DNA of 64,000 bases from an uncultured Pseudomonadota bacterium (GCA_963843375.1 CAWJKT010000010.1:64001-128000); one strand, 5' to 3'. Shown: positions 932 through 37,645, counted from the first letter of the stretch. Made by a program: numbers and translations. The notes: generated from the letters alone by a model not told the origin.

Positions 932-945
932 ATGACAGGAGTCAT
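932..945. promoter_or_regulatory. Crp/Fnr-type box ATGA-caggag-TCAT (bidirectional)
   Basis: Palindrome between divergent permease and dedA; -10-like TATTCT at 968 (+) and TATCAT at 909 (-), both starting 29.5 nt from the centre. Confidence 0.75.
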
Positions 946-981
946 GTTTTATCAGTGATTTAAGCCCTATTCTAAAAAACT

Positions 982-1563
982 ATGCTCCATTGGCTTCATT
1001 CTTTATTGCCTCACATCTCCCATTTTGGATACTTGTTCGTCTTTATTGTCGTGTTATTGAAAAATATTGGTATTCCTTTGCCGGGCGATACGATTCTTTT
1101 GGGGACGGGATTTATTCTTGGAAAAAACGCTATTTCACTTTGGCAATCCATGGTGGCGGGAACGGCCGCTTGTTTTTTGGGCGGCTTTTGGGTTTTTTGC
1201 TGGGTCGTGGTTTGGGTTACAACGTATTTAAAAAAATCCATTGGCTTCATCTCACTACGGTGAGGGTGAAATGGGATGAAAGTTTTTTCAAACGCCATGG
1301 TCCCAAGGCCGTTATTATCGCGCGAATTATCTTCTTGCTTCCGCCTTTTGCAGCCAACCTGTTGGCAGGAATGGCGAAAATGCGATGGGGGGGTCTTTCT
1401 TTTTTACGATTTCACAGGATCGGCGGCCTATGCCTGTAGCTACATTTTGATAGGATGTTTTTTCGGAAAAAAGTGGAAACTTCTTCAAGCTTGGTTAGGC
1501 CCTATTGTGCTCTATTTGATTATGGGAGGGGTAATTTTCATCGTTTTTAGGATTTATTTTTAG
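982..1563 (+). pseudogene. DedA-family membrane protein, split by two frameshifts (real decay or assembly error)
   Basis: GIPLPGDTILLGTG in 982..1263, FFKRHGPKAVIIAR...NLLAGMAKMRW in 990..1439, FLFYDFTGSAAY in 1276..1563. Confidence 0.75.
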
Positions 1564-1749
1564 GGACTTTTTATCGAAGTTGTGGGGTTTTCTTTTCTCG
1601 AAACCAGGTAAACGAAATTAATTAGGTAGTGGACGCTTCCTCCGCCTCTGTTTCTCAAGAAATAAAATAGGTTTAATTCTTTTAGGGTTTCTGCAGGAGT
1701 CCTGCTTGTTTAGCTGGAATACGACTCTCCTCCTTTGTTTTGAAATTAT

Positions 1750-1763
1750 ATGAGCCCCGTCAT
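1750..1763. promoter_or_regulatory. Crp/Fnr-type box ATGA-gccccg-TCAT
   Basis: Upstream of Ric-like gene 1; GAAAAT at 1786 (29.5 nt from centre). Confidence 0.7.
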
Positions 1764-1843
1764 GTGGGGCGGGCTGGGAAGGATGGAAAATAATGATCTG
1801 AAAGAGTCGGCTGTTTTTCAGCCTCGGTGAAAAGAGGGAAGGG

Positions 1844-2697: not shown

Positions 2698-4669
2698 ATG
2701 ATCCTTATTGAAGCCAAAGATCTTTTTAAAATCTACCACCTCGGAACTAATGAAGTGCGGGCCTTGGACGGTGTATCCCTGACAATAGAAACTGGGGAAT
2801 TCCTCGCCATCATGGGTCCCTCGGGGTCTGGCAAGTCCACCATGCTCCAAATCCTGGGCCTTTTGGACACCCCGGATTCGGGTTCCTACAAGTTATTGGG
2901 AAAAGAAGTTTCCAGCCTTTCCGAGGACGAACTGGCGGTTATCCGCAGCCAGACCCTCGGCTTCGTCTTCCAGACATTTAACCTCTTGTCCCGCACCAGC
3001 GCTCTGGAAAATGCCGCTCTTCCTCTGCTTTACGCCGATCCCCACACCCCCCACGACGATCCCAAAATACTTCTGGAAGAAGTGGGCCTTTCCAAAAGGG
3101 AGGATCACCGGCCCAATGAGCTTTCGGGGGGCCAGCAACAAAGGGTGGCTTTGGCCCGGGCTTTGGTCAATCGGCCTAAGTTGATCATGGCGGACGAACC
3201 AACCGGAAACCTGGACACGAAAAGTTCCATGGAGATCATTGGTCTTCTGGAAAAATTGAACTCGGAAGGCATCACAATCATCATGGTCACTCATGAGGAG
3301 GATATCGCTCGGCACGCTCATCGGGTCATCCATATGCGAGACGGGAAAATCGTAGGGGACCAGAAAGGCCATGGCCACACCGCCAAACTCCGGGAAGGGC
3401 GGGCGCCGAAGGTTTCGACTGAAACCAAAGTCTTTGCAGCCTTTAATCCCAAGCGGGTGGAAGAGTATTTTAACCAAGCTTTTCGGGCGCTAATGGCCAA
3501 CAAGATTCGTGCGGCGCTGTCCTTTCTGGGCATCCTGATCGGGGTGGGGGCCGTCATTACCATGCTGGCGATCGGCACCGGAGCCCAAAAGTCCATGCAG
3601 GAACAGATGGCCTCCCTTGGGACCAATTTGATTGTGCTGGTTCCTGGTTCCATACAAGTTGGCGGAATTCAGCAAGGCACCGGTTCCTGGAGTCGTATTC
3701 TTCCGGAATATGCTTTGGCGATGTCCAAAGTTCCCATGGTCAAGGCGGTGGCCCCCGAGGTCACGGGTCGGGTCCAGACAACTTACGCGGATCAGAACTG
3801 GAACACCCTTTTGAGTGGGACCTCGCCAAGTTACGCCGAAATGCGGGATGCCGAACCGATTTATGGGCGTTTTTTTAGCGAGGATGACGTGGACCGCCGT
3901 AAGAGGGTGTGCTTGCTGGGTATGACCGTGGTCAAACAGCTTTTCGGGGAAGCCAATCCCATCGGGGAAAACATGAAAATCAACAGAGTCAGTTTCCAGG
4001 TGATCGGGATATTGCCGGTCAAAGGTTCCAACGGTTTCCAGGACAGGGACGACCTGATCGTGGTGCCCTATACCACCGCCATGCACCGCCTTTTCGGCAA
4101 ACTCTACGTTAACCAGGTGGATATTGAGGTGGACAAACTGGAGAACACGGACGCCTGCGGGGACGCCGCAAAGGCTTATATGATGAAACTCACGAATATC
4201 CCCGAACTGCCGGGTAATGAGAACGCCTACATGGTTCGCAACATGGCGGACATCCAGGCCATGTTCACTAACATGACCAAAATTATGACCTTGCTTGTTG
4301 TCCTGTGTGGCGGCCATTTCACTGTTAGTTGGAGGAATCGGAATCATGAATATCATGTTGGTTTCGGTTACCGAGCGAACGAAAGAAATCGGTTTGCGCA
4401 AGGCCATCGGAGCCAGGCGTCTGGATATTCTTTCACAGTTTTTGATTGAGGCTATGACCATTAGCCTGATGGGGGGAGTGGCGGGTATCCTCATGGGCTG
4501 GGGTTCTTCCCTCGCCATTTCCTTCTTTGCGGGATGGCAAACCATTATCACGCCTTTCTCCGTGATCATCTCCACCCTTTTCTCGGCATTCGTTGGAATT
4601 GCCTTTGGGCTCTGGCCCGCCTATAAAGCTTCCCGTCTGAGCCCCATCCTGGCTTTGCGGTATGAATAA
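2698..4669 (+). CDS. macB: MacB-type fused ABC ATPase/permease (one frameshift near 4295-4305)
   Basis: Walker [26 protein letters not shown]; MacB periplasmic core; C-terminal FtsX domain ([21 protein letters not shown]...LRYE) in ORF 4295..4669. Confidence 0.85.
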
Positions 4670-7563: not shown

Positions 7564-7577
7564 ATGATCCAGATCAT
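7564..7577 (+). promoter_or_regulatory. Crp/Fnr-type box ATGA-tccaga-TCAT, promoter of the putative ncRNA
   Basis: TATAAG at 7600 (29.5 nt from centre); predicted transcription start about 7612. Confidence 0.75.
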
Positions 7578-7611
7578 GTTTATTGTCCGATGGAAGTTGT
7601 ATAAGTAAATT

Positions 7612-8022
7612 TGTAGAAAGTGTTCCAAGGTAAAGCACCCCAAGGGTGTGGCGGGGACTGAGGTCCCAAACCGAAAAAGAGCACTGCCGTCGAAAGCTGG
7701 AGGAACTGGTAAGGATTCCGGTTTTAAGCGCCTTATAGGCTGCTACGGGGACTGAGGTCCCAAACCTTCAAGGAACCCGGCCTGGCGAAGCCAGTGAGTT
7801 ATATCGGAATATTTAAAACGGTTGTCATGCCGTTGTTGTTGAAGCCCGAAGTGGGGCTTTTCAAAGTATTTGTTGGAGGTATGTCGGTACAATCGTCGGA
7901 AAGGTTCACCGGTTGCGTTTCAATGACGCGGGGCAAAGGCCCAAAACTAACAAAGAACCTTGCTGAAGATGTTGCTGATGGTCGTGAAAGCCCCGGGACA
8001 CAGGGTCCCGGGGCTTTTTTAT
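7612..8022 (+). ncRNA. Putative ~410-nt structured non-coding RNA with repeated three-way-junction modules
   Basis: Own promoter box and intrinsic terminator, no credible ORF, dense complementary segments, internal 21-nt repeat. Confidence 0.65.
7652..7766 (+). repeat. Two exact 21-nt direct repeats CGGGGACTGAGGTCCCAAACC (7652-7672, 7746-7766); degenerate third copy 7929-7947
   Basis: Read directly; each contains hairpin GGGAC-tgag-GTCCC; third copy is CGGGGC-aaag-GCCC-AAAAC. Confidence 0.9.
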
Positions 8023-8024
8023 TT
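7987..8024 (+). terminator. Rho-independent terminator
   Basis: AAAGCCCCGGGAC-acagg-GTCCCGGGGCTTT followed by a T-run. Confidence 0.9.
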
Positions 8025-8069: not shown

Positions 8070-8083
8070 GTGATCTTGGTCAT
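8070..8083. promoter_or_regulatory. Crp/Fnr-type box GTGA-tcttgg-TCAT (variant)
   Basis: Upstream of Ric paralogue 2; GAAAAT at 8106 (29.5 nt), same hexamer as at paralogue 1. Confidence 0.65.
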
Positions 8084-8134: not shown

Positions 8135-8914
8135 ATGAAAATAATTCCATCCCAGACCGTTGGTCTTATTGCGGTGAATCTGAAAGAGTCCATCCCGGTA
8201 TTTGAGAAATATAAAATCAATTACTACAATCAGGGAAGCCGCAGCTTGAAAGATGCCTGTTATTTGGCCGGGGTTTCGTTGGAACAGGTTTCCTTGGAAT
8301 TGGAGACTTTGGTTTCAACTTCTGGCGAATGGTACCTCGATAAAAAAGACAGGCGTAACGAGCCCATGGTGGCGGTAATGGATCATAACGTTAAGACCCA
8401 CCATCACTACATTCGTAAACAGTTGGACCGGATTGAAAAAATGCTGGAAACCCTGATGAATCCCACCCGTCCTCCGGTTCCGGTTGTCTCCCAAATCCGC
8501 CCCTTTTTCGATGATATGTCCCGTAATTTAAAAATCCATTTGCGCCGGGAAGAAGAGGTTGTTTTCTCCTATTTGTTGGAGGTGGAAATGTCCATGGAGA
8601 CAGGGAGGACTCTTCCGCTGACCTTCAAGGGGTATAACGCCATCACGCATCCCTTTCGTATGCTTCAGGATGACCATGGGATGATGGATAACGAGTGGAT
8701 GAAAATCGAGGAATTGACCCATGGGTTTACTGCTTCCGACGATGCCGATTCGACTCTCAAAGAACTCTACCAGGCCTTCCGGGAAATGGAAAAGGACAAC
8801 CGCAAACATTTGCATTTGGAAAACAACGTTTTGTTTCATAGGGCCATTCAATTAGGTCTTTTAAGTAATGGAGAAAAAAATGGGAACCACGTCCAAGAAA
8901 CGCCCCATCTTTAA
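8135..8914 (+). CDS. Ric/YtfE/ScdA-like di-iron protein, paralogue 2
   Basis: Clearly similar to 1844..2578; HHHY, HLRREEEVVF, DDH, HLHLENNVLF. Confidence 0.85.
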   Translation: MKIIPSQTVGLIAVNLKESIPVFEKYKINYYNQGSRSLKDACYLAGVSLEQVSLELETLVSTSGEWYLDKKDRRNEPMVAVMDHNVKTHHHYIRKQLDRIEKMLETLMNPTRPPVPVVSQIRPFFDDMSRNLKIHLRREEEVVFSYLLEVEMSMETGRTLPLTFKGYNAITHPFRMLQDDHGMMDNEWMKIEELTHGFTASDDADSTLKELYQAFREMEKDNRKHLHLENNVLFHRAIQLGLLSNGEKNGNHVQETPHL

Positions 8915-9587
8915 GAACAGGGAAGAAGCGGCCATGCTTCTGGCTCGGAGGCTGTTGCCTTATCGGGGGTTGAAGCCCCTGGTCTTGGGGGTACCGCGGG
9001 GCGGTGTTCCCATGGCAAAGATCATATCGGAGAAACTTCTGGGGGATTTGGACGTGGTTTTGGTTCATAAGCTTCAGGCTCCGGGAAATCCCGAATATGC
9101 TATCGGAGCCATATCGGAGGGTGGGACACTCTATCGGCCCCCCTATCCTCAACACCAGTGGATTCCAAAAGAATATCTTGACCGAGAAATCAATTGTGAG
9201 CTTCACGCCTTAAAGCAAAGGCGAAAACTTTACACACCCCATCATTTAGCCCAGAAAGCCGCCAACCGGATCGTTATTGTCGTGGATGATGGCATTGCCA
9301 CCGGATCCACCTTGCTTGCGGCTATGGGGGAATTGGATAGCCAAAAACCGGCCAAGGTTGTGGTGGCGGCGGCTGTTGCCCCTCCTGAGGCGGTTGAAAG
9401 GTTAAGAAAAGAAGCGGACGAAGTATTTATTTTGTCTATATGCCCCGACTTTTTGAAAATTAGCGATTTTTTTAAAGATTTTACCGAGGTGCCCGACACT
9501 GAAGTGGTTCGGATATTGGAGAATTCTTCTGCTTCCAAGCCAGGAATATCGAGGGATAACGCCCCTCTCAGAGGGAGGATGCGATGA
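8880..9587 (+). CDS. Phosphoribosyltransferase-family protein 1
   Basis: FKNREEAA, LGVPRGGVP, VIVVDDGIATGST; SD GGAG favours ATG 8880 over 8868. Confidence 0.85.
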   Translation: MGTTSKKRPIFKNREEAAMLLARRLLPYRGLKPLVLGVPRGGVPMAKIISEKLLGDLDVVLVHKLQAPGNPEYAIGAISEGGTLYRPPYPQHQWIPKEYLDREINCELHALKQRRKLYTPHHLAQKAANRIVIVVDDGIATGSTLLAAMGELDSQKPAKVVVAAAVAPPEAVERLRKEADEVFILSICPDFLKISDFFKDFTEVPDTEVVRILENSSASKPGISRDNAPLRGRMR

Positions 9588-10255
9588 GCGAGCGTTACGC
9601 CTGGGAAAAGCCATTTTTCAAAAATCGTAATGAAGCGGCCGAACTTTTGTCCGGAAGGTTGGCCGACCACAAAGGGCAAAATCCCTTGGTGTTGGCCATT
9701 CCTCGTGGTGCGGTGCCGATGGGTCGGATCATTGCGGATGATTTGGGCGGGGAATTGGACATTGTTCTAGTTCATAAGGTTGGTTCGCCCAACAATCCCG
9801 AATTAGCCTTAGGAGCGGTCGGGGAAAACGGTGAATTTTACGAGGCCCCTTTTGCGCGATCCTTGGGTTTTTCAGAAGAAACGCTTCAAAAAGAAATCCA
9901 TATTCAAACCGAAGCCTTAAAACAAAAACGAAAGCTTTATTTGTCTGATCGCCCCCTCTACAACGCGGAAGGACGAGTTGTTATTTTGCTGGATGACGGG
10001 ATTGCCACGGCTTCCACAATAATGGCCGGAATCCGTGACCTGCGTCGGCAAGGGCCCTTGAAGGTTGTGGTGGCCGCGCCTGTGGCCCCTCCCGAGGCGG
10101 TTAATATCATCCGGCAGGAAGCCGATGAGGTTGTGATATTGACCGTCCAAACCGATTTTGCGGTGATAAGTGAATTTTTCGAGGACTTCCGGCAGGTTAG
10201 TGACGAAGAGGTAAAACGGTGTCTTGAAAACACAGCGACGTTCCCTGGAAAATAA
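9584..10255 (+). CDS. Phosphoribosyltransferase-family protein 2
   Basis: FKNRNEAA, LAIPRGAVP, ILLDDGIATAST; ATGA overlap with the upstream paralogue. Confidence 0.85.
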   Translation: MSERYAWEKPFFKNRNEAAELLSGRLADHKGQNPLVLAIPRGAVPMGRIIADDLGGELDIVLVHKVGSPNNPELALGAVGENGEFYEAPFARSLGFSEETLQKEIHIQTEALKQKRKLYLSDRPLYNAEGRVVILLDDGIATASTIMAGIRDLRRQGPLKVVVAAPVAPPEAVNIIRQEADEVVILTVQTDFAVISEFFEDFRQVSDEEVKRCLENTATFPGK

Positions 10256-10317: not shown

Positions 10318-10998
10318 TTATCGTCCCTGTTGATAGAGATAGGCGGCGATATTTTTAATTTGATCCTGGGTTAAAATCCCCTTGAAACTTTTCATCTTAG
10401 TGCCCGAATTCAACTGGGCGGGATCGCTGATGTAATCCATGAGGAATCCCATATCCCTGTATTTACTTTCTTGGGAAAGATCATTCGAAAAGGCGCCGGT
10501 TTCATTGAGACTGTGGCATGCGCCGCATTGTTCGTTGAATAGCCCGGCTGCCTGAGGTGTGAAAGTATAACCGCCCAAACTATTCATATAAGCAACGAGG
10601 GCTCGGATCTGACTGTCCTTTAGGTTCATCTGGGCCATTTTCGTGCTGGGTGTAATGGCTTTCGGATGTCGGAAATGATCGGCCAACCATTCCTTAGTTC
10701 GCCTAAATCCCACATTGTCCAAGGTCGGTCCAACGGTTCCGCCCTTGCCCTTGAGACTATGACAATAAGAACATCTCAAATCGGCGTACAGCATCTTGCC
10801 ATTTGAAACCAGGGGATCTTTTTTAACTGAGGAATTTGCCGGGGTAAGCGTGGCTATTGGACTGGCGGAGGCTTGGAAGAGGAATAACCAGCTTAAACTG
10901 AAAGCAGTCCAAGACCAACCCCTGAGGAATATCTCTTTGTCGGTATCCATTGATTCATCCTGATTAACGCCAAAAGTTTGGTTAAGGCTAATCGGCAA
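10318..10998 (-). CDS. Di-heme c-type cytochrome
   Basis: CSYCH and CGACH motifs with downstream Met ligands (TKMAQM, TKMKSF); hydrophobic N-terminal segment. Confidence 0.85.
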   Translation of the reverse strand: MPISLNQTFGVNQDESMDTDKEIFLRGWSWTAFSLSWLFLFQASASPIATLTPANSSVKKDPLVSNGKMLYADLRCSYCHSLKGKGGTVGPTLDNVGFRRTKEWLADHFRHPKAITPSTKMAQMNLKDSQIRALVAYMNSLGGYTFTPQAAGLFNEQCGACHSLNETGAFSNDLSQESKYRDMGFLMDYISDPAQLNSGTKMKSFKGILTQDQIKNIAAYLYQQGR

Positions 10999-11239
10999 TT
11001 CTTTTTGAAGGGACTAGCAAGAAAATACCCGCTAGAACCCAAAGGTCAAAGGCGGTCATGAAAAAGCAATAAATGACTGTAACCCATGCGAAAAGTGGGC
11101 GCTGGTCCCACAAGTCATTCCAGGACTGCAGGAGGGTATAGTCGGATAATTGGGAAAGGCTTAAAAGACCAGCGGCTACCATGGCGGTTCCCATTAAAGT
11201 CAACGAACCCATCGTGGCTAGAATTTGTGTTTTATTCAT
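10988..11239 (-). CDS. Small two-TM hypothetical membrane protein
   Basis: Strong SD AAGGAGGA, two hydrophobic helices, overlaps the cytochrome c start. Confidence 0.7.
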   Translation of the reverse strand: MNKTQILATMGSLTLMGTAMVAAGLLSLSQLSDYTLLQSWNDLWDQRPLFAWVTVIYCFFMTAFDLWVLAGIFLLVPSKRIAD

Positions 11240-11330: not shown

Positions 11331-11344
11331 ATGATTTCTGTCAT
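11331..11344. promoter_or_regulatory. Crp/Fnr-type box ATGA-tttctg-TCAT
   Basis: Upstream of the cytochrome c operon; TAATTT on the minus strand from 11308 (29.5 nt). Confidence 0.7.
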
Positions 11345-11478: not shown

Positions 11479-12591
11479 TTATGCCCTAATTGCAACCATT
11501 TCGGCTGGAATGTATGAACAAAAAGGATCGGCTCCCATTATATCCCCGGTCAGGGCATAAGCTCTGGCTCTGGACCCTCCGCAAAGACGACGGTATTCAC
11601 ATTTTCCGCACTTCCCATTTAGGGAGTCGGTATCCCGCAATTTTTGAAAGAGCGGGCTTTCCCGATAAATTCCGTCCAACGGCTGGTCCTTCACGTTGCC
11701 TGCCGAAAGGGGTAGAAAACCGCTGGGACAAACATCCCCTTTATGAGATATAAAAACAAAGCCCCGGCCATCACCCACGCCCCGCGAGGTTCTTTGAAGG
11801 ACCGGGTCAGGGCGGAGGGTTAAGGCTTCCGGTAGCTCATCGGGTGTTATGCCATAACTCTGGAGGATCACCCGGCGGAAATGGTGGGCTTCGGTGGTTT
11901 TGACATCGAACCATCCCTGCTTAAGAATGTCATAAAGCTGCTTCAATACTTTTTCTGTCTCGGGGGCAGTTAAGGTTTGGTTCTTTTGGGCTCTTCCGGT
12001 TGGCACTAAAAAAAAGACCGACCAAAGGTCGATGGAAAATCGCCGGATGAGCTGGGCTATTTCCCAAACTTGGAACTTGTTATGCCGGCCGATCGTGGTG
12101 TTGATCTGAAGGTGCATTCCTAATTCCCGGATTGTTTGGGACGCCTCAAGGACCCGGTCAAAGGTGCCGGGGATACCGCGGAAAAGATCGTGTGTGACTG
12201 CGTTGGCACCATCCAGAGAAAGGGAAATCCGTTGAAGACCTTCATCCCGTAATTCCTCCAGGCGTTCCCTAGTTAACAAGGGGGTCACAGAAGGAGCCAA
12301 GGCAAAGTTCATCTTTCGTTGCGTGCATTCCCTGACCAGAAGGGTCAAATCCGGCCGTTTCAAAGGGTCCCCCCCTGTCATTACAAAAAGGGGGACACCC
12401 CAGTCCGCCAGTTGGTGGATCAAATCTAATGCTTGCCTTGTGTCAAGTTCATCGGGATAAATTTGGGATTGGGCCTCGGCCCGGCAATGGACGCAGGCCA
12501 AATCGCAAGCCCTTGTTGTTTCCCAAATGGCGATATAGGGTCGGTCGGCATGTCGGGCTGTTGGTTTTTGGGGCGCAGAGATTTTTTCCAT
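11479..12591 (-). CDS. Radical SAM/SPASM protein (TIGR04053 / AhbD-NirJ-like, heme-synthesis associated)
   Basis: WETTRACDLACVHCRA, TGGDPL, PSGFLP, GKCGKCEYRRLCGGSRARAYA...DPFC. Confidence 0.85.
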   Translation of the reverse strand: MEKISAPQKPTARHADRPYIAIWETTRACDLACVHCRAEAQSQIYPDELDTRQALDLIHQLADWGVPLFVMTGGDPLKRPDLTLLVRECTQRKMNFALAPSVTPLLTRERLEELRDEGLQRISLSLDGANAVTHDLFRGIPGTFDRVLEASQTIRELGMHLQINTTIGRHNKFQVWEIAQLIRRFSIDLWSVFFLVPTGRAQKNQTLTAPETEKVLKQLYDILKQGWFDVKTTEAHHFRRVILQSYGITPDELPEALTLRPDPVLQRTSRGVGDGRGFVFISHKGDVCPSGFLPLSAGNVKDQPLDGIYRESPLFQKLRDTDSLNGKCGKCEYRRLCGGSRARAYALTGDIMGADPFCSYIPAEMVAIRA

Positions 12592-12664: not shown

Positions 12665-12678
12665 ATGATTCTGCTCAT
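12665..12678. promoter_or_regulatory. Crp/Fnr-type box TATGA-ttctgc-TCATA
   Basis: Between divergent radical SAM and NMO genes; TAAAGT on the minus strand from 12642 (29.5 nt); TTAAAT at 12702 (+). Confidence 0.75.
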
Positions 12679-12787
12679 AAAGGGTTTAAGGGGAATGGTT
12701 GTTAAATAGGTCTTTGTTTAAGCACGTTATTCTGAAGGACGGTTTTTGAACAAACCTGTTCTTTTTCCGAATTCAAAAGGGGTTTTA

Positions 12788-14236
12788 ATGACTGAACCAA
12801 TGATTATCCAGGGTGGTATGGGAGTAGCAGTTTCCAATTGGAGACTAGCCCGAGCGGTTTCCAAAACCGGACAACTGGGGGTGGTATCCGGAACAGCCCT
12901 GGAAAACGTCCTAGCCCGCCGGCTTCAATTGGGGGACCAGGATGGTTCCGTTCGTCTGGCTTTGGATCATTTCCCGAATCCGACCATCGCCCGGAAGATT
13001 TTGGAAAGTTATTTCATACAAGGAGGGAAAACGAAAGGTGTCCCTTTCAAAAGTACGCACATGTTTTCCCTGAAATCGCCGCGGGAGTTAGTGGAGTTAA
13101 CTGTTGCGGCTAATTTCGTCGAGGTTTTTCTGGCTAAATTGGGACATCAGGGTCTGGTGGGAGTCAACTACCTGGAGAAAATACAACTTCCAACTTTGCC
13201 ATCACTCTATGGCGCGCTTTTGGCCGGAGTGGATTATGTTCTCATGGGGGCGGGAATTCCTCGCTCCATTCCCGCATTACTTGATCAATTGGTTTTACAC
13301 CAAGAAGTTTCATTAAAAGTTCAAGTTCAAGGTGCGGCTCCGGAGGATGATTATCGGGTATCTTTCGATCCCAAGGATGTTTTGGAATTCCCTGGAACTC
13401 CTTTGAAACGCCCCAAGTTCATCGCCATCGTCTCTTCGGAGATTCTAGCCATTACCTTGGCCAAGAAATCCACCGGGAAGATTGATGGATTTGTTATCGA
13501 AAATCCAAGCGCGGGCGGACACAACGCCCCGCCAAGGGGACCCCTCCATTTGAATGAAAAAGGTGAACCCCTTTATGGACCCAAAGATAAAGTGGATTTA
13601 GGTGCCTTCCGAAACCTAGCACTGCCTTTTTGGTTGGCTGGATCCTGCGCCGATCCCCAAAAACTCGTGGATGCGATTTCCCAAGGCGCCAACGGCATCC
13701 AAGTAGGAACCGTATTCGCCTATTGCGAGGAATCAGGGCTTATGGATCGAATCAAGCGGAAGGTTTTTACAAAAACCTTGAAGGGGGAGGAAGAGGTTTT
13801 TACCGATCCTGTGGCGTCTCCAACCGGTTTTCCTTTTAAGATTGTACGATTGGAGGGAACCATTTCGGAAAAAGAAGAATATAGGGATCGTCCAAGGACT
13901 TGTGATTTGGGTTATCTCAGAACGGTTTATAAACGAAAAGATGGAACGGTAGGCTATCGTTGCCCCGGGGAACCAAAGGAAATCTATCTTCAAAAAGAAG
14001 GAAAAGAAGAGGAGATGGATGGCCGCAAATGTATCTGCAACGGATTGATGGCCGGAATTGGATTAGGACAGGAACATAGAAATGGTTACCAGGAAAAACC
14101 GCTTGTGACTTCAGGCGACGATTTGGCCCGGATTGCCTCGATTCTTAAAGGGGATTATCTTTCATACACGGCTTCAGACGTTATTCGATACTTACTGAGT
14201 GCTTTAGGGGCTGGATTTGAACCCATGCCAACGTAA
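12788..14236 (+). CDS. Nitronate monooxygenase-family flavoprotein
   Basis: IIQGGMGVAVS, LMGAGIP, AGGHNAPPRG, GIQVGT, CDLGYL, CICNGL. Confidence 0.85.
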   Translation: MTEPMIIQGGMGVAVSNWRLARAVSKTGQLGVVSGTALENVLARRLQLGDQDGSVRLALDHFPNPTIARKILESYFIQGGKTKGVPFKSTHMFSLKSPRELVELTVAANFVEVFLAKLGHQGLVGVNYLEKIQLPTLPSLYGALLAGVDYVLMGAGIPRSIPALLDQLVLHQEVSLKVQVQGAAPEDDYRVSFDPKDVLEFPGTPLKRPKFIAIVSSEILAITLAKKSTGKIDGFVIENPSAGGHNAPPRGPLHLNEKGEPLYGPKDKVDLGAFRNLALPFWLAGSCADPQKLVDAISQGANGIQVGTVFAYCEESGLMDRIKRKVFTKTLKGEEEVFTDPVASPTGFPFKIVRLEGTISEKEEYRDRPRTCDLGYLRTVYKRKDGTVGYRCPGEPKEIYLQKEGKEEEMDGRKCICNGLMAGIGLGQEHRNGYQEKPLVTSGDDLARIASILKGDYLSYTASDVIRYLLSALGAGFEPMPT

Positions 14237-14292
14237 CAGTTTTTAATTAGTTTTCCAAAATCCGAAATCCTTTCGACTGTAAAGCTACGATT

Positions 14293-15345: not shown

Positions 15346-15384
15346 GGGTGCTCCTGGCGGCACAATTTAAAACAAAGGTTCTTA

Positions 15385-16808: not shown

Positions 16809-16810
16809 TA

Positions 16811-18133: not shown

Positions 18134-18149
18134 CATCTGGAACTTCGGT

Positions 18150-27676: not shown

Positions 27677-29131
27677 CTACTCCTTTCCCGCGAGGGACGA
27701 TATGACGGATAACTGCATTAATATCTGAACATTGTTTGAGGCGGCAAGTATATTGGCGTTTAAGGCCTGGAAATTTGCGGTTTGGACTTCCAGGAAACGA
27801 ACTGTTCCCGCTCGATAGGCTCCGTAGGTGAGTTTAGCCAATTCTTGAGTCTCGGACACCGCTGTTTCGTTTAAGTTCTGTTGGTATTCAAGCGACCTTA
27901 AAGAGTCACCAGCCTTGTTCCAGTCGCGCCAAAGGTCGGATCTGGCCTGGTCCAAGTCCTTCAGATAGGCTTCGGATTGTTGGCGTTTGGAATCCGAATC
28001 TTTCAGGATGGTGCCCCAATCAAACAAGGGCATGGTTGCCGATATGGAAATAATGTTTTGTTCTTTTGTTTCCGGTATCACCTGGTCGGCAGGATTCTCA
28101 AAACCAGCTTGGGCTGATAGCGTGATCTTGGGTAAAAGTTCGGAATTTAATGCGTTTGCCGCGAGGCGGGCGGAATCGGCTAGGTAGGCATAGGTCTTGA
28201 GTTGGGGGACCGAGTCGTCGGGAGGAACAGAAGATTCTCTTTGAAGGGGCCCAAGGGTGTCTTTCACCAAATCGGTGGAGAGCCAAGCCGTGGGATCCGG
28301 AATACCTTCTGGGAGGCCCCCTTCCATGTGGCTGTCGAGAGGACGGGTAAAATCGGCCGGTTCCTTTTCTCCCACCAAATCGAATAGATCTCTCAAGGAT
28401 TGGGCCAGATTGGCTTGGGCTTGGATGAACTGCCGCTGATAATTCAAAACTTCCTGGTGAGAGGATAACTGGTCCATCCGACTTGCGGTTCCGAAGCGGG
28501 CTTGGTGGACGATATCGGCGTACTGGGCCTGGGCAACTTTGAGAGAATCACCTAAGAGTCGGACCTGCTCCACGTTGATTTTCATTTGGAAATAAGCCAG
28601 TCTTACCGCCAAACGCAACTGCCTTTGGACGGCAAAATATTGTTGTTCCTGAGATTGGGAAGCCGCCGTAGAGCTGTTGGCCATGTTGTGCTGGGAACGA
28701 AAATCCCATAGGTTCCAGTTCAAGGTGGCCTGGGCGTTCCAGTTGTTGGCTTCACCGAAAGGCAGGTTGTGGATATAGGGCGGAAGGTTAAGATCGGGTA
28801 CAAAGGTTTGGTAGAAGTAAGTTCCACCCACCCCAAGCCGTGGAAACTCCGCTGCGCCCATTGAACCCGCCTCACTTCGAACGGATTCGTAGCTTAATTT
28901 CGCTGATTGAAGCATGGCGGAATTTTGAAAAGCTGTTTGAACCAATTCGGAAAGGAATAAGGCCAAATGGGTCACGGCCGCTTGATTTGGGTTTTTGGAA
29001 GGAGTAAAGGCCTCTTCTTGAGCCCTGGGACTAAAAGGAGCGAGGTTTGTGATTCCAGCGTTGTCGGATCCGGGTTGGCCCCAAACCCGAACAACGAGGA
29101 ACCATAGCAGTAAAGCAAGTTTTTGTTTCAT
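27677..29131 (-). CDS. TolC-family outer-membrane protein
   Basis: Signal peptide, two OEP-like repeats, MPLFDWG, operon context. Confidence 0.85.
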   Translation of the reverse strand: MKQKLALLLWFLVVRVWGQPGSDNAGITNLAPFSPRAQEEAFTPSKNPNQAAVTHLALFLSELVQTAFQNSAMLQSAKLSYESVRSEAGSMGAAEFPRLGVGGTYFYQTFVPDLNLPPYIHNLPFGEANNWNAQATLNWNLWDFRSQHNMANSSTAASQSQEQQYFAVQRQLRLAVRLAYFQMKINVEQVRLLGDSLKVAQAQYADIVHQARFGTASRMDQLSSHQEVLNYQRQFIQAQANLAQSLRDLFDLVGEKEPADFTRPLDSHMEGGLPEGIPDPTAWLSTDLVKDTLGPLQRESSVPPDDSVPQLKTYAYLADSARLAANALNSELLPKITLSAQAGFENPADQVIPETKEQNIISISATMPLFDWGTILKDSDSKRQQSEAYLKDLDQARSDLWRDWNKAGDSLRSLEYQQNLNETAVSETQELAKLTYGAYRAGTVRFLEVQTANFQALNANILAASNNVQILMQLSVISSLAGKE

Positions 29132-29778
29132 TGGTTTTCCAGTCCTTTCTTGGGTGTAAGGGTTTTCAGAATCAAATCTACCCTTGTTTTAATTGCCTTA
29201 TCCGTGGCGACAGCGGTCCTGGCAACAGCAAAGGGGATGAAGCCCAAACGCTTCACTTCAAGGTGTTCCAACATGGCCACCATGATCAGTGGAAAAAGGC
29301 AGGTCCCCATAAGTACCGACATAATGGAGGGAAGCGGCATTTTACGAAGGGAGGCTTCTTTTTGGCATTGTCGCACCAAATCCACAATGGCTAGTCCATG
29401 ACGGGGAACGTTGGTCTTTAAAAAATCAAGAACGACTCGGTTTTTGTTTAACACGTCGTACAGAATGCCCAAGAGCATCCTCCGGTTCGTGCCCACGAAA
29501 CGACCCAAGGTATAAAGGGCCGAACGGAGCCTTTCCAGTGCGGGTCCATCCCCGGAAGTTTCCAGAGAAAATTGCCGGAAAAACTTCTCGTAAGTATCCT
29601 GTAAAACTGAACGGGTAAACTGCTCCTTGGTTTTGAAATGGTAATGGAACATCCCCAGGTTAACACCAGCCTTTTTGGCTACTTGGCGTAGGTTCATTTG
29701 AGACAGGCCGGATTTGTTGAGAAGATTCCTGGCGGCTTCTATGAGCCTTTGGTCGGTGTTTCCGGAAGGTCTCGACAT
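29128..29778 (-). CDS. TetR/AcrR-family regulator
   Basis: HTH LRQVAKKAGVNLGMFHYHFKTKE; first gene of the efflux operon. Confidence 0.9.
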   Translation of the reverse strand: MSRPSGNTDQRLIEAARNLLNKSGLSQMNLRQVAKKAGVNLGMFHYHFKTKEQFTRSVLQDTYEKFFRQFSLETSGDGPALERLRSALYTLGRFVGTNRRMLLGILYDVLNKNRVVLDFLKTNVPRHGLAIVDLVRQCQKEASLRKMPLPSIMSVLMGTCLFPLIMVAMLEHLEVKRLGFIPFAVARTAVATDKAIKTRVDLILKTLTPKKGLENQ

Positions 29779-32267: not shown

Positions 32268-32969
32268 TCAGTTACCCGTTTCCTGAATCCCAAGTTTGAT
32301 CACGTAATGGACGACGATTTTGTTGTCCACGTTCATGACCAGCGCCATGCTATAGGGTGACACTCCATAATCCTTTTGGAGGATATCTTGGTTTCCGTAA
32401 AGCACTAAACCCTCCGGTCCGTTGAGCAGGGTAGCCTCAAGGACAATGTCCCTTTCCTGTCCGGCTATTTTCATCTTGCCTTGGGCAAGGATGGCATAGA
32501 CGCCCGGTGTGCCGGGGAAGGGCTTGACCACGTAGTCGTTCATCTTGAAGACGATGTCGGGAAAATCCTTGGCCTTCAAGGTATTGGCGGCGTTCTTGTC
32601 CATTCCATCTTCACCCGATTTCAGACCTGCAATAGGAACTGTCACGGTGAGATTGTGAATCTTCCGGTCAAGGATCAAGGATAAGAGACTTTTATCTTTG
32701 GGGTCGGACTTGTCCACTTCGCTGGTAGCGGAAACCTGCGTAGCGTTGAAATAAAAACGGTGCACAGTAGAGTTGCCTTCCAACCAAAGCTCCGTACCAG
32801 CCTTAAAATCCAGAGCTGGCTTTCCGGATTTGGCGTCGATTGGCCCTGCAACCGGCGTCGTGAGATAAACGGTTTTGGCCTTGCTTTCCGCATCATCCGC
32901 CCGAAGGGCCGATGATAAGGGAAGGGATAAAGCCAAGACCGAAAGCACTGCAAGTTGAATCTTTTTCAT
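32268..32969 (-). CDS. Exported YceI-family protein 1
   Basis: Signal peptide; LEGNSTVH, VPIAGLKSG...MD...LKAKDFPDIVF, GKMKIAG, DYGVSP. Confidence 0.8.
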   Translation of the reverse strand: MKKIQLAVLSVLALSLPLSSALRADDAESKAKTVYLTTPVAGPIDAKSGKPALDFKAGTELWLEGNSTVHRFYFNATQVSATSEVDKSDPKDKSLLSLILDRKIHNLTVTVPIAGLKSGEDGMDKNAANTLKAKDFPDIVFKMNDYVVKPFPGTPGVYAILAQGKMKIAGQERDIVLEATLLNGPEGLVLYGNQDILQKDYGVSPYSMALVMNVDNKIVVHYVIKLGIQETGN

Positions 32970-33037
32970 TTTTTCTCTCCTCGTAAAATTAACTTCATTT
33001 ACCACGCGCATCATGCCGATGATTCCAAATTTTCTTT

Positions 33038-33051
33038 ATGAGCTTAGTCAT
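33038..33051. promoter_or_regulatory. Crp/Fnr-type box TATGA-gcttag-TCATA
   Basis: Upstream of yceI1-porin; CATGAT on the minus strand from 33015 (29.5 nt). Confidence 0.75.
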
Positions 33052-33250: not shown

Positions 33251-33264
33251 ATGAGCGGCGTCAT
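33251..33264. promoter_or_regulatory. Crp/Fnr-type box TATGA-gcggcg-TCATA
   Basis: Upstream of the cNMP-domain gene; GACAAT at 33286 (28.5 nt). Confidence 0.75.
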
Positions 33265-33322: not shown

Positions 33323-33823
33323 ATGCCGAACTTGGAACAAAGAATGACCAAGCACCCATTTTTAAGAAGCATCCCCGGCGATAACATTCGTCTTTTGGCG
33401 GAAGATACAACGCCGATGATATTCAAGCCGGGTGAAATGGTTTTTCGCCGGGGGATGAATGCCAATCATCTTTTCCTGGTGGAAAAGGGAATCGTTCTAG
33501 TGGGTTTGCTAAAATCCGAATCTGGAGGGCCCTTGACCATTGCGACGGTTACAAAAGGGGGCAGTTTGGGTTGGTCCTGGGCCTTTGAGCCTTATCGCTG
33601 GAAGTTTGATGCAAAGGCCAAGACTCGGGTGGAGGTTCTGGCGTTGGAAGGAAAACCCCTTCTCGCCAAGATGGGGAGGTATCCGCTTTTAGGATATGAA
33701 CTCATGAGTCACTTGGCGCTCTCACTATCCAAGGGTTTGGAAGCTACCCGCCACCAGTTAATCAAGCTTCATCACCGGAAGTCAAAAACCGACTTGATCT
33801 ATTTGCAGCAACCGTTATTTTAA
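33323..33823 (+). CDS. Stand-alone cyclic-nucleotide-binding-fold protein (no HTH)
   Basis: FKPGEMVFRRG..ANHLFLVEKG, LGWSWAFEPYRWKFDAKA; SD AAGGAG. Confidence 0.8.
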   Translation: MPNLEQRMTKHPFLRSIPGDNIRLLAEDTTPMIFKPGEMVFRRGMNANHLFLVEKGIVLVGLLKSESGGPLTIATVTKGGSLGWSWAFEPYRWKFDAKAKTRVEVLALEGKPLLAKMGRYPLLGYELMSHLALSLSKGLEATRHQLIKLHHRKSKTDLIYLQQPLF

Positions 33824-33884: not shown

Positions 33885-34628
33885 TTATTCTACGGGCGGC
33901 GCAAAAACGAGGTCATAATGGATTTCGATTTCGTCCGTGCAACTTATGGAAGTCCCTTGAATTGAAATTGAAGGCAATTTCACCCCGTAATCGGACATTT
34001 TGAGCTTTTGAATTCCCTTCAAATGAATTTTGGCATCTTTGATTTCAATTATCGGGGACATTGTAATGGGAAGTGTTATTCCAGCAATCTTTAGGTTCCC
34101 AGTCGCCATCATGAGATTTCCTTTTAGGGTTTCACTTTCCAGATCGAATTCAATGGATGGATTTTCCTTGGAATGCAGGGCATTATAAACATTATTGTCC
34201 AAAGCCGTTTTCTTTGATTTCAAATTGCCCACAGGGACGACTAAAACCATCGAATCCACCCCATTGTTTTTGAGCGCTTCGGTCAATTCCGTCTTGGGTT
34301 CTTTCAACGACCCTGACGCTAAAAGAACAGTGGCATTTAAATGGTACTTGTGAACCTTATTTGAGTTCATTTGGTATTTGTAAAATATGGAATCCCCTTC
34401 CAAGTAAAGAAAACTACCCGTCTGGAGGACCAAGTCCGTTTTCACTGTGGGATCAACAGGTCCAACAGACTGGGCTGCACTCTCGTACCAATGTGGTGCT
34501 CCTGGCTTGAGCTGATTGTTGGCGTTTGGAGTCGTCAACGGGTTAACCTGGCTGTCAGCTAAAACGTTTAGAGTCGCGGCCGTTACGAACCCCGTCATGG
34601 CGAACCGTAGTAATAATGATTTCGTCAT
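33885..34628 (-). CDS. Exported YceI-family protein 2
   Basis: Paralogue of 32268..32969: LEGDS, VPVGNLKS..LD...ENPSIEF, GNLKIAG, MSDYGVKLP. Confidence 0.8.
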   Translation of the reverse strand: MTKSLLLRFAMTGFVTAATLNVLADSQVNPLTTPNANNQLKPGAPHWYESAAQSVGPVDPTVKTDLVLQTGSFLYLEGDSIFYKYQMNSNKVHKYHLNATVLLASGSLKEPKTELTEALKNNGVDSMVLVVPVGNLKSKKTALDNNVYNALHSKENPSIEFDLESETLKGNLMMATGNLKIAGITLPITMSPIIEIKDAKIHLKGIQKLKMSDYGVKLPSISIQGTSISCTDEIEIHYDLVFAPPVE

Positions 34629-34716: not shown

Positions 34717-34730
34717 ATGACTTAGAGCAC
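34717..34730. promoter_or_regulatory. Crp/Fnr-type box variant TATGA-cttaga-GCACA
   Basis: Upstream of yceI2; CATGAT on the minus strand from 34694 (29.5 nt), same as at yceI1. Confidence 0.55.
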
Positions 34731-34798: not shown

Positions 34799-34812
34799 AT
34801 GATCCCAATCAT
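34799..34812. promoter_or_regulatory. Crp/Fnr-type box AATATGAT-ccca-ATCATATT
   Basis: Upstream of the kinase-like gene; 8-bp arms. Confidence 0.7.
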
Positions 34813-34879
34813 ATTGGCGTTCCCCGTTTGGAGCATCATAGCTTTGTAAAGGTTTCCCAATTCAGGTGGAGGAAAATTC

Positions 34880-36259
34880 GTGGAGCCATTTTGGGGGGAA
34901 GGAATCTATGTAAAAAAAGGCGGATGGTTTATCGGCTTAAGATGGATTGCGGTCGCCGGCGGACTTTTGATTCTGATAGTCGCTCCTTTTTTAGTTCCCT
35001 TGGATGTTAAGTATGAAAGATTATCGACTGTTCTTCTCTTTGGCGGGTTTTTGAACGGGGTTTATTATTGGTATTGGAATCATTTAAAGCGTATAGGTCT
35101 TTCCCAAACCGAATGGACCAAAAAGGTGGAATGGTTTCTTCATATTCAAATGGGTGGGGATCTCTTGGCTCTTACCCTTTTGCTTTTATTCAGCGGTGGA
35201 TCCAATAATCCTCTGATTTTTTTCTACCTTTTCCATCTCGCTATTGGGGCCATTCTTTTCGACCGGGTGCAAAGCCTGCCCTATGCCCTGGCTGCTTTGG
35301 CCATCCCTTGGCTACTCTACTGGGTGGAACCCTTGACTAATCCAACTCAAAATCTTTGGAAAGGACTCGGAGAAATCCAGCCAGAGCATCAAAAGGCCAT
35401 CTTGTTGGCCTACTCCCTGACGGTTGCCGGCCTTTGGTTTTTCCTCACGAACCTGGCGGAAGACTTGAGGGGAAAGGAACGGAATCTTTGGGAGACGGGA
35501 GAAAAACTTCATATCGCCAATACCGAATTGAAAGAATTGGATATTTTTAAAAACCGGTTTTTAAAACAAGTGGTCATGCAAGTCAAGGACCCCTTGATGG
35601 AACTGGGATTGGAATTGGGTAAAGTCGAAAAGAACATTGCGGGTTCGGATGAAATCGCTTCGAGGGCGATTGAGATGGCCAAAAAACAGATTTGGGTTCT
35701 CTTGCAGTTGATTGAAGATTTAGTTTGGATTTCCAGAACTCGGGCCCAGGACAACTCCTTCAAACGTGATTGGGTGGATGTTTACGAAACTTTAAGAAAG
35801 TGCATTCAGGCAAAAGAGGAGCAGGCAGGAAAAAAGGGAATCCATTTTTTACTTCACGGGGAGCCTCAGGTCCGTTTGAGAGCGGATCCAGAGTCTTTTC
35901 AAAAAGCCGCGGATAATTTGATCGCCAATGCCGTCCAATATACACCGGAAGGTTGGGGCGATATTCTTGTAGAGTTCAAAATTGAGGGAGATTGGTTGGA
36001 ATTTGCCGTCGAAGACCACGGAATCGGTATTTCACCCAAGAATCAGAAAAATTTGTTTCAGGAGTTCTACCGTGGTTCCAATGCCAAAAGACAAGAAAAG
36101 TTCGGAACGGGACTGGGCCTTTCAATCGTCAAATCAATAATTAATCTGCATGGAGGAAAAATCCAAGTACGAAGCGAACCCAAAAAGGGAACGAGAGTGG
36201 ATACTTGGTGGCCGCACGTTCATGATGAGGCAAGTCCGGAACCGACAAAAATCAACTAG
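34880..36259 (+). CDS. Membrane sensor histidine-kinase-like protein lacking the H-box His
   Basis: Several TM helices; N box NLIANAVQY, G1 DHGIGI, F box LFQEFY, G2 GTGLGL; H-box region reads FLKQVVMQVKDPL. Confidence 0.8.
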   Translation: MEPFWGEGIYVKKGGWFIGLRWIAVAGGLLILIVAPFLVPLDVKYERLSTVLLFGGFLNGVYYWYWNHLKRIGLSQTEWTKKVEWFLHIQMGGDLLALTLLLLFSGGSNNPLIFFYLFHLAIGAILFDRVQSLPYALAALAIPWLLYWVEPLTNPTQNLWKGLGEIQPEHQKAILLAYSLTVAGLWFFLTNLAEDLRGKERNLWETGEKLHIANTELKELDIFKNRFLKQVVMQVKDPLMELGLELGKVEKNIAGSDEIASRAIEMAKKQIWVLLQLIEDLVWISRTRAQDNSFKRDWVDVYETLRKCIQAKEEQAGKKGIHFLLHGEPQVRLRADPESFQKAADNLIANAVQYTPEGWGDILVEFKIEGDWLEFAVEDHGIGISPKNQKNLFQEFYRGSNAKRQEKFGTGLGLSIVKSIINLHGGKIQVRSEPKKGTRVDTWWPHVHDEASPEPTKIN

Positions 36260-37278
36260 GTTCGGTTAATTAGGGCGTCCCCCATTTGCAAAACAGCGGC
36301 TCCCTCCAGGCGTCCTGCGCGAAGATCCGCAAGGGCTTCGTTGGCTTTACTCAAAGGATAAACCTTGACATGGGTTTTGATGGGAATTTGGGGTGCCAGT
36401 TTCAGGAATTCCTCGCCGTCTTGCCGGGTTAGATTCGCGACGGACCGGATTTGCCGCTCGCCCCATAAAATGGAATAAGGGAAAGAAGGAATGTCACTCA
36501 TGTGTATGCCCGCACATACGACTATTCCGCCCTTGACGACCGCTCGAAGAGCCAGAGGAACCAATTCTCCCACCGGGGCGAAAATAATGGCGGCATCCAG
36601 TAATTTTGGCGGTTTTTTCGCCGATTCTCCCACCCAATCCGCTCCGAGTTCTTTTGCAAAGGCCTGATTTTCACTATTGCCAGGACGGGTGAAGACATAA
36701 ACTTCACGATTTTGGTGCTTCGCAACTTGGATTAAAAGATGAGCCGACGCGCCGAATCCGTAAAACCCCAATCTTTTTCCTTCCCCTGCCATCCGAAGGG
36801 CCCGGTAGCCGATCAAACCAGCGCATAACAAGGGCGCCGCTTGAAGATCGGGATAACTTGGAGGAATCGGAAAAGTGAAATTTTGATCTGCCAGGCAATA
36901 TTCGGCAAAGCCACCATCCAATTGGTATCCCGTGTAGCGGGCAAGGTCGCACAAGTTTTCCTTCCCGGCCATGCAATAATCGCAAGTTCCGCAACTTCCT
37001 CCCAGCCATGGGACGCCAACTCGTTCACCCATTTTAAAGGCCACTACCCCGGGACCTAAGCCTTCCACCACTCCGACGATTTGATGACCAGGGACCAGCG
37101 GCAACTTCGGCTCTTTCAAGTCGCCATCCAACAAATGAAGGTCGGTGCGACAAACCCCGCAAGCCTTGATCTGGACAAGTACTTGACCGGCAAGGGGAAT
37201 AGGTTTGGGAAGGACAACCGGTTTTAATGGTTTTCCAACGGAATCTAGAACCATAGCATTCATGAAGGGGCGATCCAT
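36256..37278 (-). CDS. Zinc-dependent alcohol dehydrogenase family protein
   Basis: CGVCRTDLH, PGHQIVG, CGTCDYCMAGKENLC, APLLCAG, YGFGASA. Confidence 0.9.
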   Translation of the reverse strand: MDRPFMNAMVLDSVGKPLKPVVLPKPIPLAGQVLVQIKACGVCRTDLHLLDGDLKEPKLPLVPGHQIVGVVEGLGPGVVAFKMGERVGVPWLGGSCGTCDYCMAGKENLCDLARYTGYQLDGGFAEYCLADQNFTFPIPPSYPDLQAAPLLCAGLIGYRALRMAGEGKRLGFYGFGASAHLLIQVAKHQNREVYVFTRPGNSENQAFAKELGADWVGESAKKPPKLLDAAIIFAPVGELVPLALRAVVKGGIVVCAGIHMSDIPSFPYSILWGERQIRSVANLTRQDGEEFLKLAPQIPIKTHVKVYPLSKANEALADLRAGRLEGAAVLQMGDALINRT

Positions 37279-37619
37279 AAGAACAGTTTAACAGTTCTTT
37301 TGAATTTCATGGCGCCGTCGCTATTTGACGTTCTTAATTTTAATTTCTGACGGATCGGGTGGGGGAAGAAAATGCATCGAAAGCGATTTAGAGATCAAAC
37401 CCTGCGTGGGGTCCAAATAAACAGAATCTTTCACGCGCGGGCATTTAATGGTGCGACGACAATTATCACTCCATTTCCGATGTAGTGCCTCAAAAAATTC
37501 TTTTAATATCTTCGATTTCTGCATTTGAAGCTCCGGTTTTCATTCTGGTAAAAGGGGTAACTTAAAAGCTCCTCCAATTCCAGGATGTGACGTATCCAAT
37601 ATGGTCAAGTTCTTTTTAA

Positions 37620-37645
37620 CTCTCTATGACGTCGGTCATAGAGAG
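37620..37645. promoter_or_regulatory. Crp/Fnr-type box (core 37626-37639) with 11-bp arms; probable autoregulatory site
   Basis: CTCTCTATGAC-gtcg-GTCATAGAGAG; TAATTT at 37662 (+, 29.5 nt), CATATT from 37603 (-). Confidence 0.8.

Follow-up and report, generated by a model that had tools for sequence, protein, structure and literature searches.

Boxes and genes at the locus

The window analysed here, by which we mean the whole 64,000-nucleotide stretch GCA_963843375.1 CAWJKT010000010.1:64001-128000 from an uncultured Pseudomonadota bacterium, carries a cluster of genes preceded by copies of one palindromic box, ATGA-N6-TCAT, together with the gene of a Crp/Fnr-family regulator (37674-38333). 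An earlier note, made from the sequence alone, had listed 16 such sites between positions 932 and 37645 and had read them as a single low-O2/nitric oxide (NO) regulon. All 14 exact sites and both variants lie where the note had placed them; it had omitted two other exact copies, at 17385 and 53909, which fall within open reading frames and score low (6.4 and 1.4, respectively) against a position weight matrix (PWM). As this matrix was trained on 14 window sites, the scores of these sites are circular, while those of the tests on relatives are not. The variants read GTGATCTTGGTCAT at 8070 (PWM 12.7) and ATGACTTAGAGCAC at 34717, the latter being weak (PWM 7.5). In the list below, the -10-like hexamers start 29.5 nt from the box centre unless stated otherwise.

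932-945: divergent box; on the - strand an ABC permease/ATPase operon (start 882; -10 TATCAT), on the + strand a frameshifted DedA/VTT gene, 982-1563 (-10 TATTCT)
1750-1763: box before a RIC/YtfE-like di-iron gene, 1844-2578; -10 GAAAAT
2637-2650: box before a MacB-type ABC gene, 2698-4449; -10 TAAATT; same site in the same-genus genome G054
7564-7577: box before the non-coding RNA below; -10 TATAAG at 7600; position kept in 6/9 RNA-carrying genomes
7612-8024 (+): candidate structured non-coding RNA, about 410 nt, with three copies of a module of about 78 nt (7611-7688, 7701-7781, 7892-7967) and an intrinsic terminator (about 7987-8022)
8070-8083: variant box before a second RIC-like gene, 8135-8914, and two phosphoribosyltransferase (PRTase)-domain genes, 8868-10255; -10 GAAAAT
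11331-11344: box before a small membrane gene, 10988-11239 (-), and a diheme cytochrome c gene, 10318-10998 (-); -10 TAATTT
12665-12678: box before a TIGR04053 radical SAM/SPASM gene, 11479-12591 (-); -10 TAAAGT
15392-15405: divergent box; on the - side a fatty acid desaturase gene, 14293-15345 (-10 TAAATT), on the + side an oxidase subunit IV-like gene, an AurF-like di-iron gene, 15987-16808, and a GT9 gene, 16811-18133 (-10 TATACT)
20801-20814: box before a membrane pyrophosphatase gene (-), 18407 to about 20740, start codon inferred from translation; -10 TAAACT
21769-21782: box before a GGDEF gene, 20938-21723 (-); weak -10 AAAAAT
22666-22679: box before a hemerythrin gene, 22086-22607 (-); -10 TATCAT
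33038-33051: box before a YceI gene, 32268-33014 (-); -10 CATGAT
33251-33264: box before a gene with a cyclic nucleotide (cNMP) domain only, 33323-33823; -10 GACAAT at +28.5
34717-34730: weak variant box before a YceI gene, 33885-34628 (-); -10 CATGAT
34799-34812: box before a membrane histidine kinase gene, 34880-36259; -10 CATCAT at +28.5
37626-37639: putative autoregulatory box; -10 TAATTT on the + strand; predicted +1 at 37674, the A of the regulator's ATG, so that the mRNA would be leaderless
37674-38333 (+): Crp/Fnr-family regulator of 219 aa; Pfam cNMP_binding and HTH_Crp_2; CRP fold

The earlier statement that all sites stand upstream of gene starts needs one amendment, as box 7564 heads a non-coding RNA and no protein gene. 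Box 37626 may also face the Zn-alcohol dehydrogenase (Zn-ADH) gene 36256-37278 (-), and box 12665 may be used by the NMO-domain gene 12746-14236 (+) too. Judging by gene order, box 33038 probably heads a co-transcribed run down to 22735 (an unknown secreted protein, START, TetR, OEP, HlyD and an ABC-2 exporter). The best-conserved targets are the histidine kinase and the regulator itself. The product of 33323-33823, a cNMP domain without a helix-turn-helix (HTH), is encoded by a target gene in genome G067 as well and could modulate the regulator. The assembly is 80% complete and holds many frameshifts; those that split genes in the window (982-1563 DedA, 2698-4669 MacB, 18150-18410 pyrophosphatase, 38362-41100 acyl-CoA ligase/GNAT and 47897-49145 lysA) are probably sequencing errors, and genome G054 has some of these genes whole.

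The window holds 16 exact copies of ATGA-N6-TCAT, compared with a mean of 1.14 and a maximum of 5 in 100 shuffles. Genome-wide there are 132 copies in 4.05 Mb, or about 2 per 64 kb, which is double the chance rate of once per 65 kb assumed by the earlier note. The eight-base form is by itself not rare, whereas the ten-base form TATGA-N6-TCATA is: this genome contains 16 intergenic copies of it and none in coding DNA. With the half-sites at spacers of 4, 5, 7 or 8 nt, the genome has 0-1 intergenic copies, and across the whole genome the FNR-type TTGA-N6-TCAA shows no excess over its other spacings. With gene boundaries from a simple gene caller made for this analysis, 16 exact intergenic sites fall in the 8.0 kb of intergenic DNA of the island and 30 in the remaining 670 kb (Poisson p 2e-21). 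The shuffles, the coding/intergenic split and the island density rule out a chance origin of the box cluster, and a start-codon artefact is excluded because the sites are intergenic and spacer-specific. A Fur box was rejected as well, since the Fur core ATGA-N3-TCAT has another spacer (PMC545781, excerpt).

Promoter spacing, a candidate structured RNA and the extent of the cluster

The -10-like hexamer that the earlier note had placed 29.5 nt from the centre in 14 of the 16 sites was recovered by scoring both strands: against a -10 matrix, 14/16 sites scored at least 1.4 at this offset (background 10.8%), a cut-off chosen after the data had been seen, and 13/16 scored at least 2.5 (background 5.7%). 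For 33251 and 34799, the two sites not among the 14, the hexamer starts at +28.5. In relatives (17 regions from 16 related genomes, with flanks oriented by gene position alone), TAnnnT stood at +29.5 in 35/109 gene-facing flanks and in seven or fewer at each of 31 other offsets; the count was 25/87 without the same-genus genome, and 8/75 in flanks facing away from genes. A -10 hexamer at +29.5 places the box centre at -41.5, and a strict -41.5 position is the class II arrangement of CRP and FNR. By proxy, the site centres thus lie 41.5 nt upstream of +1, as judged from the -10 position, from the conserved 5' edge of the RNA, which is 40.5 nt from the box centre in 6/9 genomes, and from the regulator ATG, which falls exactly at the predicted +1 in 4/19 orthologues (48-nt spacing). 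The regulator mRNA of these 4/19 genomes is likely leaderless (window 37626-37676).

The RNA at 7612-8024 has a fold z of -4.55, contains no credible gene and ends in a strong terminator. Homologues with three modules each occur in varied gene contexts in nine family genomes, and a model built on these nine found full three-module copies only in them among 99 genomes. Across 27 modules, 8/11 module pairs showed compensatory change above shuffled and slid controls, the shuffle leaving relatedness in place. No Rfam family matched 7612-8024 at gathering score, with only weak terminator-type matches, and the repeat had no viral match. The box stands 40.5 nt before module 1 in six of the nine genomes, and three genomes of one genus lack it. 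A cis-acting riboswitch was ruled out, because in G070, G062 and G048 the RNA is followed by a different, convergently oriented gene. Our most likely guess is a protein-binding RNA; the box offers the first handle on the timing of its production.

The cluster is not confined to about 38 kb, as had been claimed, since four more sites lie about 12 kb further left, at window positions -11838, -6846, -4171 and -4126. Near this left end, at about 51.8 kb of the contig, the GC content jumps from about 49% to about 70% (C10:1-51800, with actinobacterium-like genes), which is probably a chimeric mis-join, so that the left boundary of the cluster is provisional. In G054, where the cluster is about 70 kb long, it is continuous with genes that match the end of contig C15 of our genome; the 100 kb examined contained 24 sites, all of them intergenic. 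The cluster of G054 also contains, behind a weak box, a second, N-ATPase-like ATP synthase operon (12904-19043) that is not in the cluster of our genome. Half of the 16 perfect boxes are found elsewhere in the genome and precede, among others, a Rieske/cytochrome b/CydA-like operon, phosphoenolpyruvate (PEP) synthase and ADH, a second desaturase, and a gene that we label BON-type on our own reading of its sequence. The first of these (C6:262869-266996), headed by a strong box, combines an unknown membrane protein, Rieske, cytochrome b and CydA-like genes into an unusual respiratory complex. The cluster described by the earlier note is thus real, but its scope left out the members elsewhere in the genome, a paralogous regulator on contig C4 and a precedent in Burkholderia, both of which are discussed below.

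The probable regulator and the proposed base code of its helix

Pfam, AlphaFold2, Foldseek and a dimer model agree on the architecture of the Crp/Fnr superfamily for 37674-38333, with a cNMP-type beta-barrel, a C-helix dimer and a C-terminal HTH. The protein scores below every named NCBIfam cut-off (Fnr: 38.6 versus a cut-off of 228), falls in generic Crp/Fnr clusters only in the ESM Atlas, and has its closest named relatives under the label candidate division FCPU426. A box lies within 300 nt upstream of the gene in 18 of 19 orthologue loci (the 19 best of 30), and the box tracks the recognition helix in metagenomic loci (see below); both support the choice of this protein as the likely regulator.

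The recognition helix reads V181-E-T-C-I185-R186, and among 120 listed homologues (of 222 matches) it is VET[CS]IR in 114, VESSIR in five and VETCVR in one. CRP-type structures have Arg180 where this protein has Val181, and a Ser at the position of Ile185. The features of a CRP-type cAMP receptor are missing, namely the Glu/Arg cassette, Arg180 and a TGTGA box (here ATGA). Thr82 and Tyr91 stand where CRP has its cAMP-binding Glu and Arg (4ev0 and 4byy alignments), and these positions are flanked by four cysteines, Cys72, Cys83, Cys84 and Cys93, kept in all 120 listed homologues of the 222 matches. The N-terminal Cys cluster of E. coli-type FNR is absent, there being no Cys before residue 72. 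The dimer model scored 0.64 (best control 0.00), with a run agreement of at least 84% of contacts and a pLDDT of at least 78; this mark is reached by 20/30 solved homodimers and 1/23 monomers, and the model was probably remembered from CRP-family structures. All four Cys contact residues 130-137 of the partner in this model, which suggests that they cluster at one pocket. Four invariant Cys in the effector pocket suggest an iron-sulfur (Fe-S) or metal sensor, with Fe-S as the best guess and heme-thiolate or a metal ion as alternatives. One such alternative is that the Cys sense a metal ion or the thiol redox state (Cu, Zn, Fe or a disulfide) and that the genes form a metal/oxidative-stress regulon. 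VIT1, a CDF transporter, rubrerythrin and hemerythrins do follow boxes in relatives, and the Cys-Cys pair could bind a soft metal. We nevertheless consider this quite improbable, because respiratory and carbon-metabolism targets are, to our knowledge, not typical of metal regulons and because the Nramp gene of the cluster lacks its own box.

Turning to more distant proteins, we scanned metagenomes by the helix pattern GTT[VIT]ET[ATS]IR only and took the best 80 of 588 loci, whose regulators are 28-39% identical to that of the window. Non-coding DNA of these loci contained 48 copies of ATGA-N6-TCAT in 38/80 loci, against four of the GTGA, none of the TTGA and three of the CTGA form, and other spacers gave 0-3 non-coding copies. 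With one locus per 70% cluster, ATGA still occurred 13 times in 10/19 loci, versus GTGA 0, TTGA 0 and CTGA 2. The +29.5 peak also reappeared in the 80 loci (36/120 flanks, with 16 at +28.5). These counts support the distinct TATGA-N6-TCATA specificity put forward by the earlier note and suggest that the ATGA code is a widespread third outer-base class. Val-Glu is also the pair of FNR, which reads T, and Ser212 of FNR is held to contact that base; Ile is therefore the likely cause of A. In a previous comparative study, regulator positions 180 and 181 were tied to bases 3 and 6 of the box (Rodionov 2005, PMC1274295, excerpt).

Searches of plasmids returned only NnrR-type relatives of about 30% identity. 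In eight plasmid loci used as a control, six with Ser before Arg held a single ATGA box in total and TTG-type boxes in four, a control that is not clean, as the Ser-type proteins differ at position 181 too. A Paenibacillus control locus had no TATGA box. On the Hymenobacter plasmid CP014769.1 (8467), a Crp/Fnr protein with an ESLIR helix is accompanied by one TATGA box just before cydA, which hints that the code reaches Bacteroidota.

The box might instead be read by another factor, such as the TetR protein 29128-29778 or a response regulator of kinase 34880 (the TetR and kinase genes are both in the cluster), or might be a repressor site, given that a site at -41.5 overlaps the -35 element. 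Either variant appears very improbable to us, as the strict -41.5 position is the class II arrangement of CRP and FNR, and as the box goes with the Crp/Fnr helix across 80 unrelated loci in whose choice those genes played no part.

Within the family, TATGAY-N4-RTCATA is present in 26/30 genomes, with 178 sites versus one for the reversed control, a sequence that may be scarcer in any case owing to its composition. Other families of the FCPU426 phylum encode ET-x-IR regulators of 30-35% identity, with a box nearby in 6/14 regulator loci; two genomes whose matches carry RETTTR (G004 and G081) have no exact box genome-wide. In a quick tree, the window protein, its orthologues and the C4 paralogue grouped together (SH-aLRT 96) over an open backbone, with NnrR-type plasmid proteins as the only named references and an open backbone for the HcpR/DNR/NnrR branches as well.

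The C4 paralogue (C4:437890-438576) is 49% identical to the window protein. It could drive most of the promoters, or both proteins could act in an FnrN/FixK-like cascade in which the window protein is one input. Its VETCIR helix is identical, 2-6 homologues are found in many family genomes, and the clusters of G054 and G067 each contain two copies of the Cys type. We consider such an arrangement unlikely, as it is the window orthologue that is embedded in the cluster, with a strong box upstream in 18/19 genomes, while the C4 neighbourhood holds only two imperfect boxes. In this neighbourhood (C4:435055-438576), the Cys-poor paralogue lies two genes from a V4R/XylR-type sigma-54 activator, which is preceded by an imperfect box with no -10 at +29.5. 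Contig C4 has 56% GC overall, and parts of it, including genes for universal stress proteins (USPs) and possibly cydAB, may be foreign.

Possible trigger signal and relation to known systems

By gene content, the targets in the window comprise two RIC/YtfE-like proteins, a hemerythrin, an AurF-like di-iron protein, a desaturase, a diheme cytochrome c and the TIGR04053 enzyme, and further the membrane pyrophosphatase, the GGDEF protein, PRTases, exporters, the kinase and the ADH. Among the 103 first genes after boxes in relatives, those that recur are the kinase (10 genomes), the regulator (9), hemerythrin (7) and PRTase (6); cytochrome bd, oxidase subunits, rubrerythrin, VIT1 and PPK2 are single cases, and c-type cytochromes, Rieske proteins and the CDF transporter were also found. 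Linkage to hcp, nir or nor is limited to some distant ET-x-IR relatives. Their boxes precede DUF1858, NifU/NfuA, a ferredoxin with a prismane/CODH-family gene, a multiheme cytochrome and small COX1-like genes, and these distant regulons look like HcpR regulons.

With the same box and regulator, the signal might be NO or nitrite, sensed via heme or a labile cluster as in HcpR/DNR-like nitrosative stress, and not O2. The two RIC/YtfE-like genes and the hemerythrin gene among the direct targets would fit, and the distant targets (DUF1858, NifU/NfuA, ferredoxin/prismane and multiheme cytochrome) correspond to the HcpR-type set (PMC1274295, excerpt). On the other hand, hcp has no match in our genome, the distant regulators lack the Cys motif, so that their signal need not carry over, and the PRTase, ADH, acyl-CoA ligase, PEP synthase and HlyD/ABC-2/OEP genes are reminiscent of the lxa genes induced under hypoxia (PMC3721108, excerpt). 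We regard this signal as somewhat unlikely, although low O2, NO and Fe-S damage are not separable from sequence.

We favour, with a probability of roughly 0.7, the reading that a dimer of the 37674-38333 protein binds the box and would activate transcription from -41.5 in response to low oxygen or redox stress, sensed by an Fe-S or metal centre on its cysteines. At promoters across the cluster, the palindrome TATGA-N6-TCATA stands 29.5 nt before the -10, with the conserved spacing described above. Judging by co-occurrence, the Crp/Fnr protein with its ET[ACST]IR helix would read the box: E182 and R186 would contact the TGA core, and Ile185 would select A over T or G at the outer position. The position of the box points to activation from -41.5, and the four invariant Cys to a cysteine-bound cofactor. 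A low-oxygen/redox signal would match the di-iron, heme, oxidase, acetate/alcohol and pyrophosphate genes, the lxa-like survival set and the three-module RNA, and the regulator would activate its own gene. Of the low-O2/NO response proposed by the earlier note, the box specificity, the class-II geometry and the regulator are retained; its trigger rests on gene content.

Several observations weigh against this reading. The three heme-copper oxidase operons of our genome have no site scoring at least 10, and no hcp match was found in the genome (80% complete) or in the cluster. The C4 paralogue shares the VETCIR helix and lacks Cys83/84, which prevents an assignment of the sites to a single protein. 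Among the metagenomic loci, 42/80 (many of them short) had no non-coding exact box, and 77/78 parsed regulators had no Cys in the pocket segment; box and sensor are therefore separable. Within the family, G056 and G060 encode the regulator but lack any exact TATGAY-N4-RTCATA, G055 (63% complete) and G065 (84% complete) have three and two sites, respectively, and no regulator match, and the genomes compared are related, so that the counts are not independent. Lastly, the ET-x-IR proteins did not resolve as one clade in the quick tree, and given its open backbone the Ile may have more than one origin.

A wider proposal, which we make tentatively and at somewhat less than even odds, is that the ATGA-N6-TCAT class is undescribed and widespread and reads its box by virtue of a single Ser-to-Ile change in the recognition helix, and that one FCPU426 branch independently evolved an FNR-like O2/NO sensor with a four-Cys Fe-S site in the cyclic-nucleotide pocket, the survival genes under its control being clustered and including a new three-module RNA. 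In textbooks, the CRP/FNR code is the model case of a base being set by a single residue of the recognition helix. It would be extended by a third class with A as the outer base, linked to position 184 and testable by one mutation; such a class would also allow regulons to be read from sequence in many uncultured lineages, as an estimated 2800 metagenomic stretches or so match the helix pattern. Spellings of the box in literature text led to no paper (figures, subscription papers and RegPrecise were outside the search), and the box is not given in the text examined of PMC3590769, PMC545781, PMC5701242 and PMC6659574 (excerpts).

CsrB/RsmY-type RNAs are stand-alone genes with repeated modules, small GGA hairpins and an intrinsic terminator. 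The RNA at 7612-8024 shares this gene layout, the repeats and the terminator, but its modules are multi-stem junctions of about 78 nt.

The regulon is real; its clustered layout is not new in itself. The lxa locus of Burkholderia cenocepacia is a 50-gene low-oxygen cluster with 17 intergenic TGA-N6-TCA-type boxes, for which low-O2 induction was measured (PMC3721108, excerpt), whereas the cluster here is known from sequence alone. Our cluster is of the same type, with clustered genes, one TGA-N6-TCA box and an embedded CRP-family gene; a sensor kinase, Zn-ADH, cytochrome c, an exporter of ABC, membrane fusion and outer membrane proteins, and a few members outside the cluster are further likenesses (PMC3721108, excerpt). 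According to the same excerpt, lxa differs in being rich in USPs and in having Anr-like candidate regulators. Here, USP matches were limited to contigs C4 and C29, with none in the cluster, which instead has di-iron proteins, a membrane pyrophosphatase and an RNA gene.

With the HcpR, HcpR2, DNR and NnrR regulons, our system shares the covariation of helix and bases and the RIC, hemerythrin and cytochrome targets (PMC1274295, excerpt). The consensus boxes given there are of the TGTGA, TTGAC, GTAAC, TTGAT and TTGcg types; 'ATGA' has no occurrence in the main text, and TATGA-N6-TCATA is not among the supplement rows shown. The code of that group uses positions 180 and 181, whereas position 184 is implicated here.

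CRP, GlxR and Desulfovibrio HcpR1 (TGTGA-N6-TCACA) share the fold, the dimer interface and the 16-bp palindrome layout, and differ in that our protein has Val for Arg180 and Thr and Tyr for the cAMP-binding Glu and Arg, and its box A for G. E. coli FNR and FixK/Anr (TTGAT-N4-ATCAA) share with our system the TGA-N6-TCA core, the Val-Glu...Arg helix, the -41.5 centre and four conserved Cys; the outer base here is A and not T, with Ile for the Ser before Arg. The Cys of FNR are at positions 20, 23, 29 and 122 (PMC6659574, excerpt), in contrast to those in the effector pocket here (72, 83, 84 and 93), and a four-Cys centre in the cAMP pocket would, if true, give the Crp/Fnr family a separate way of sensing gases or redox state.

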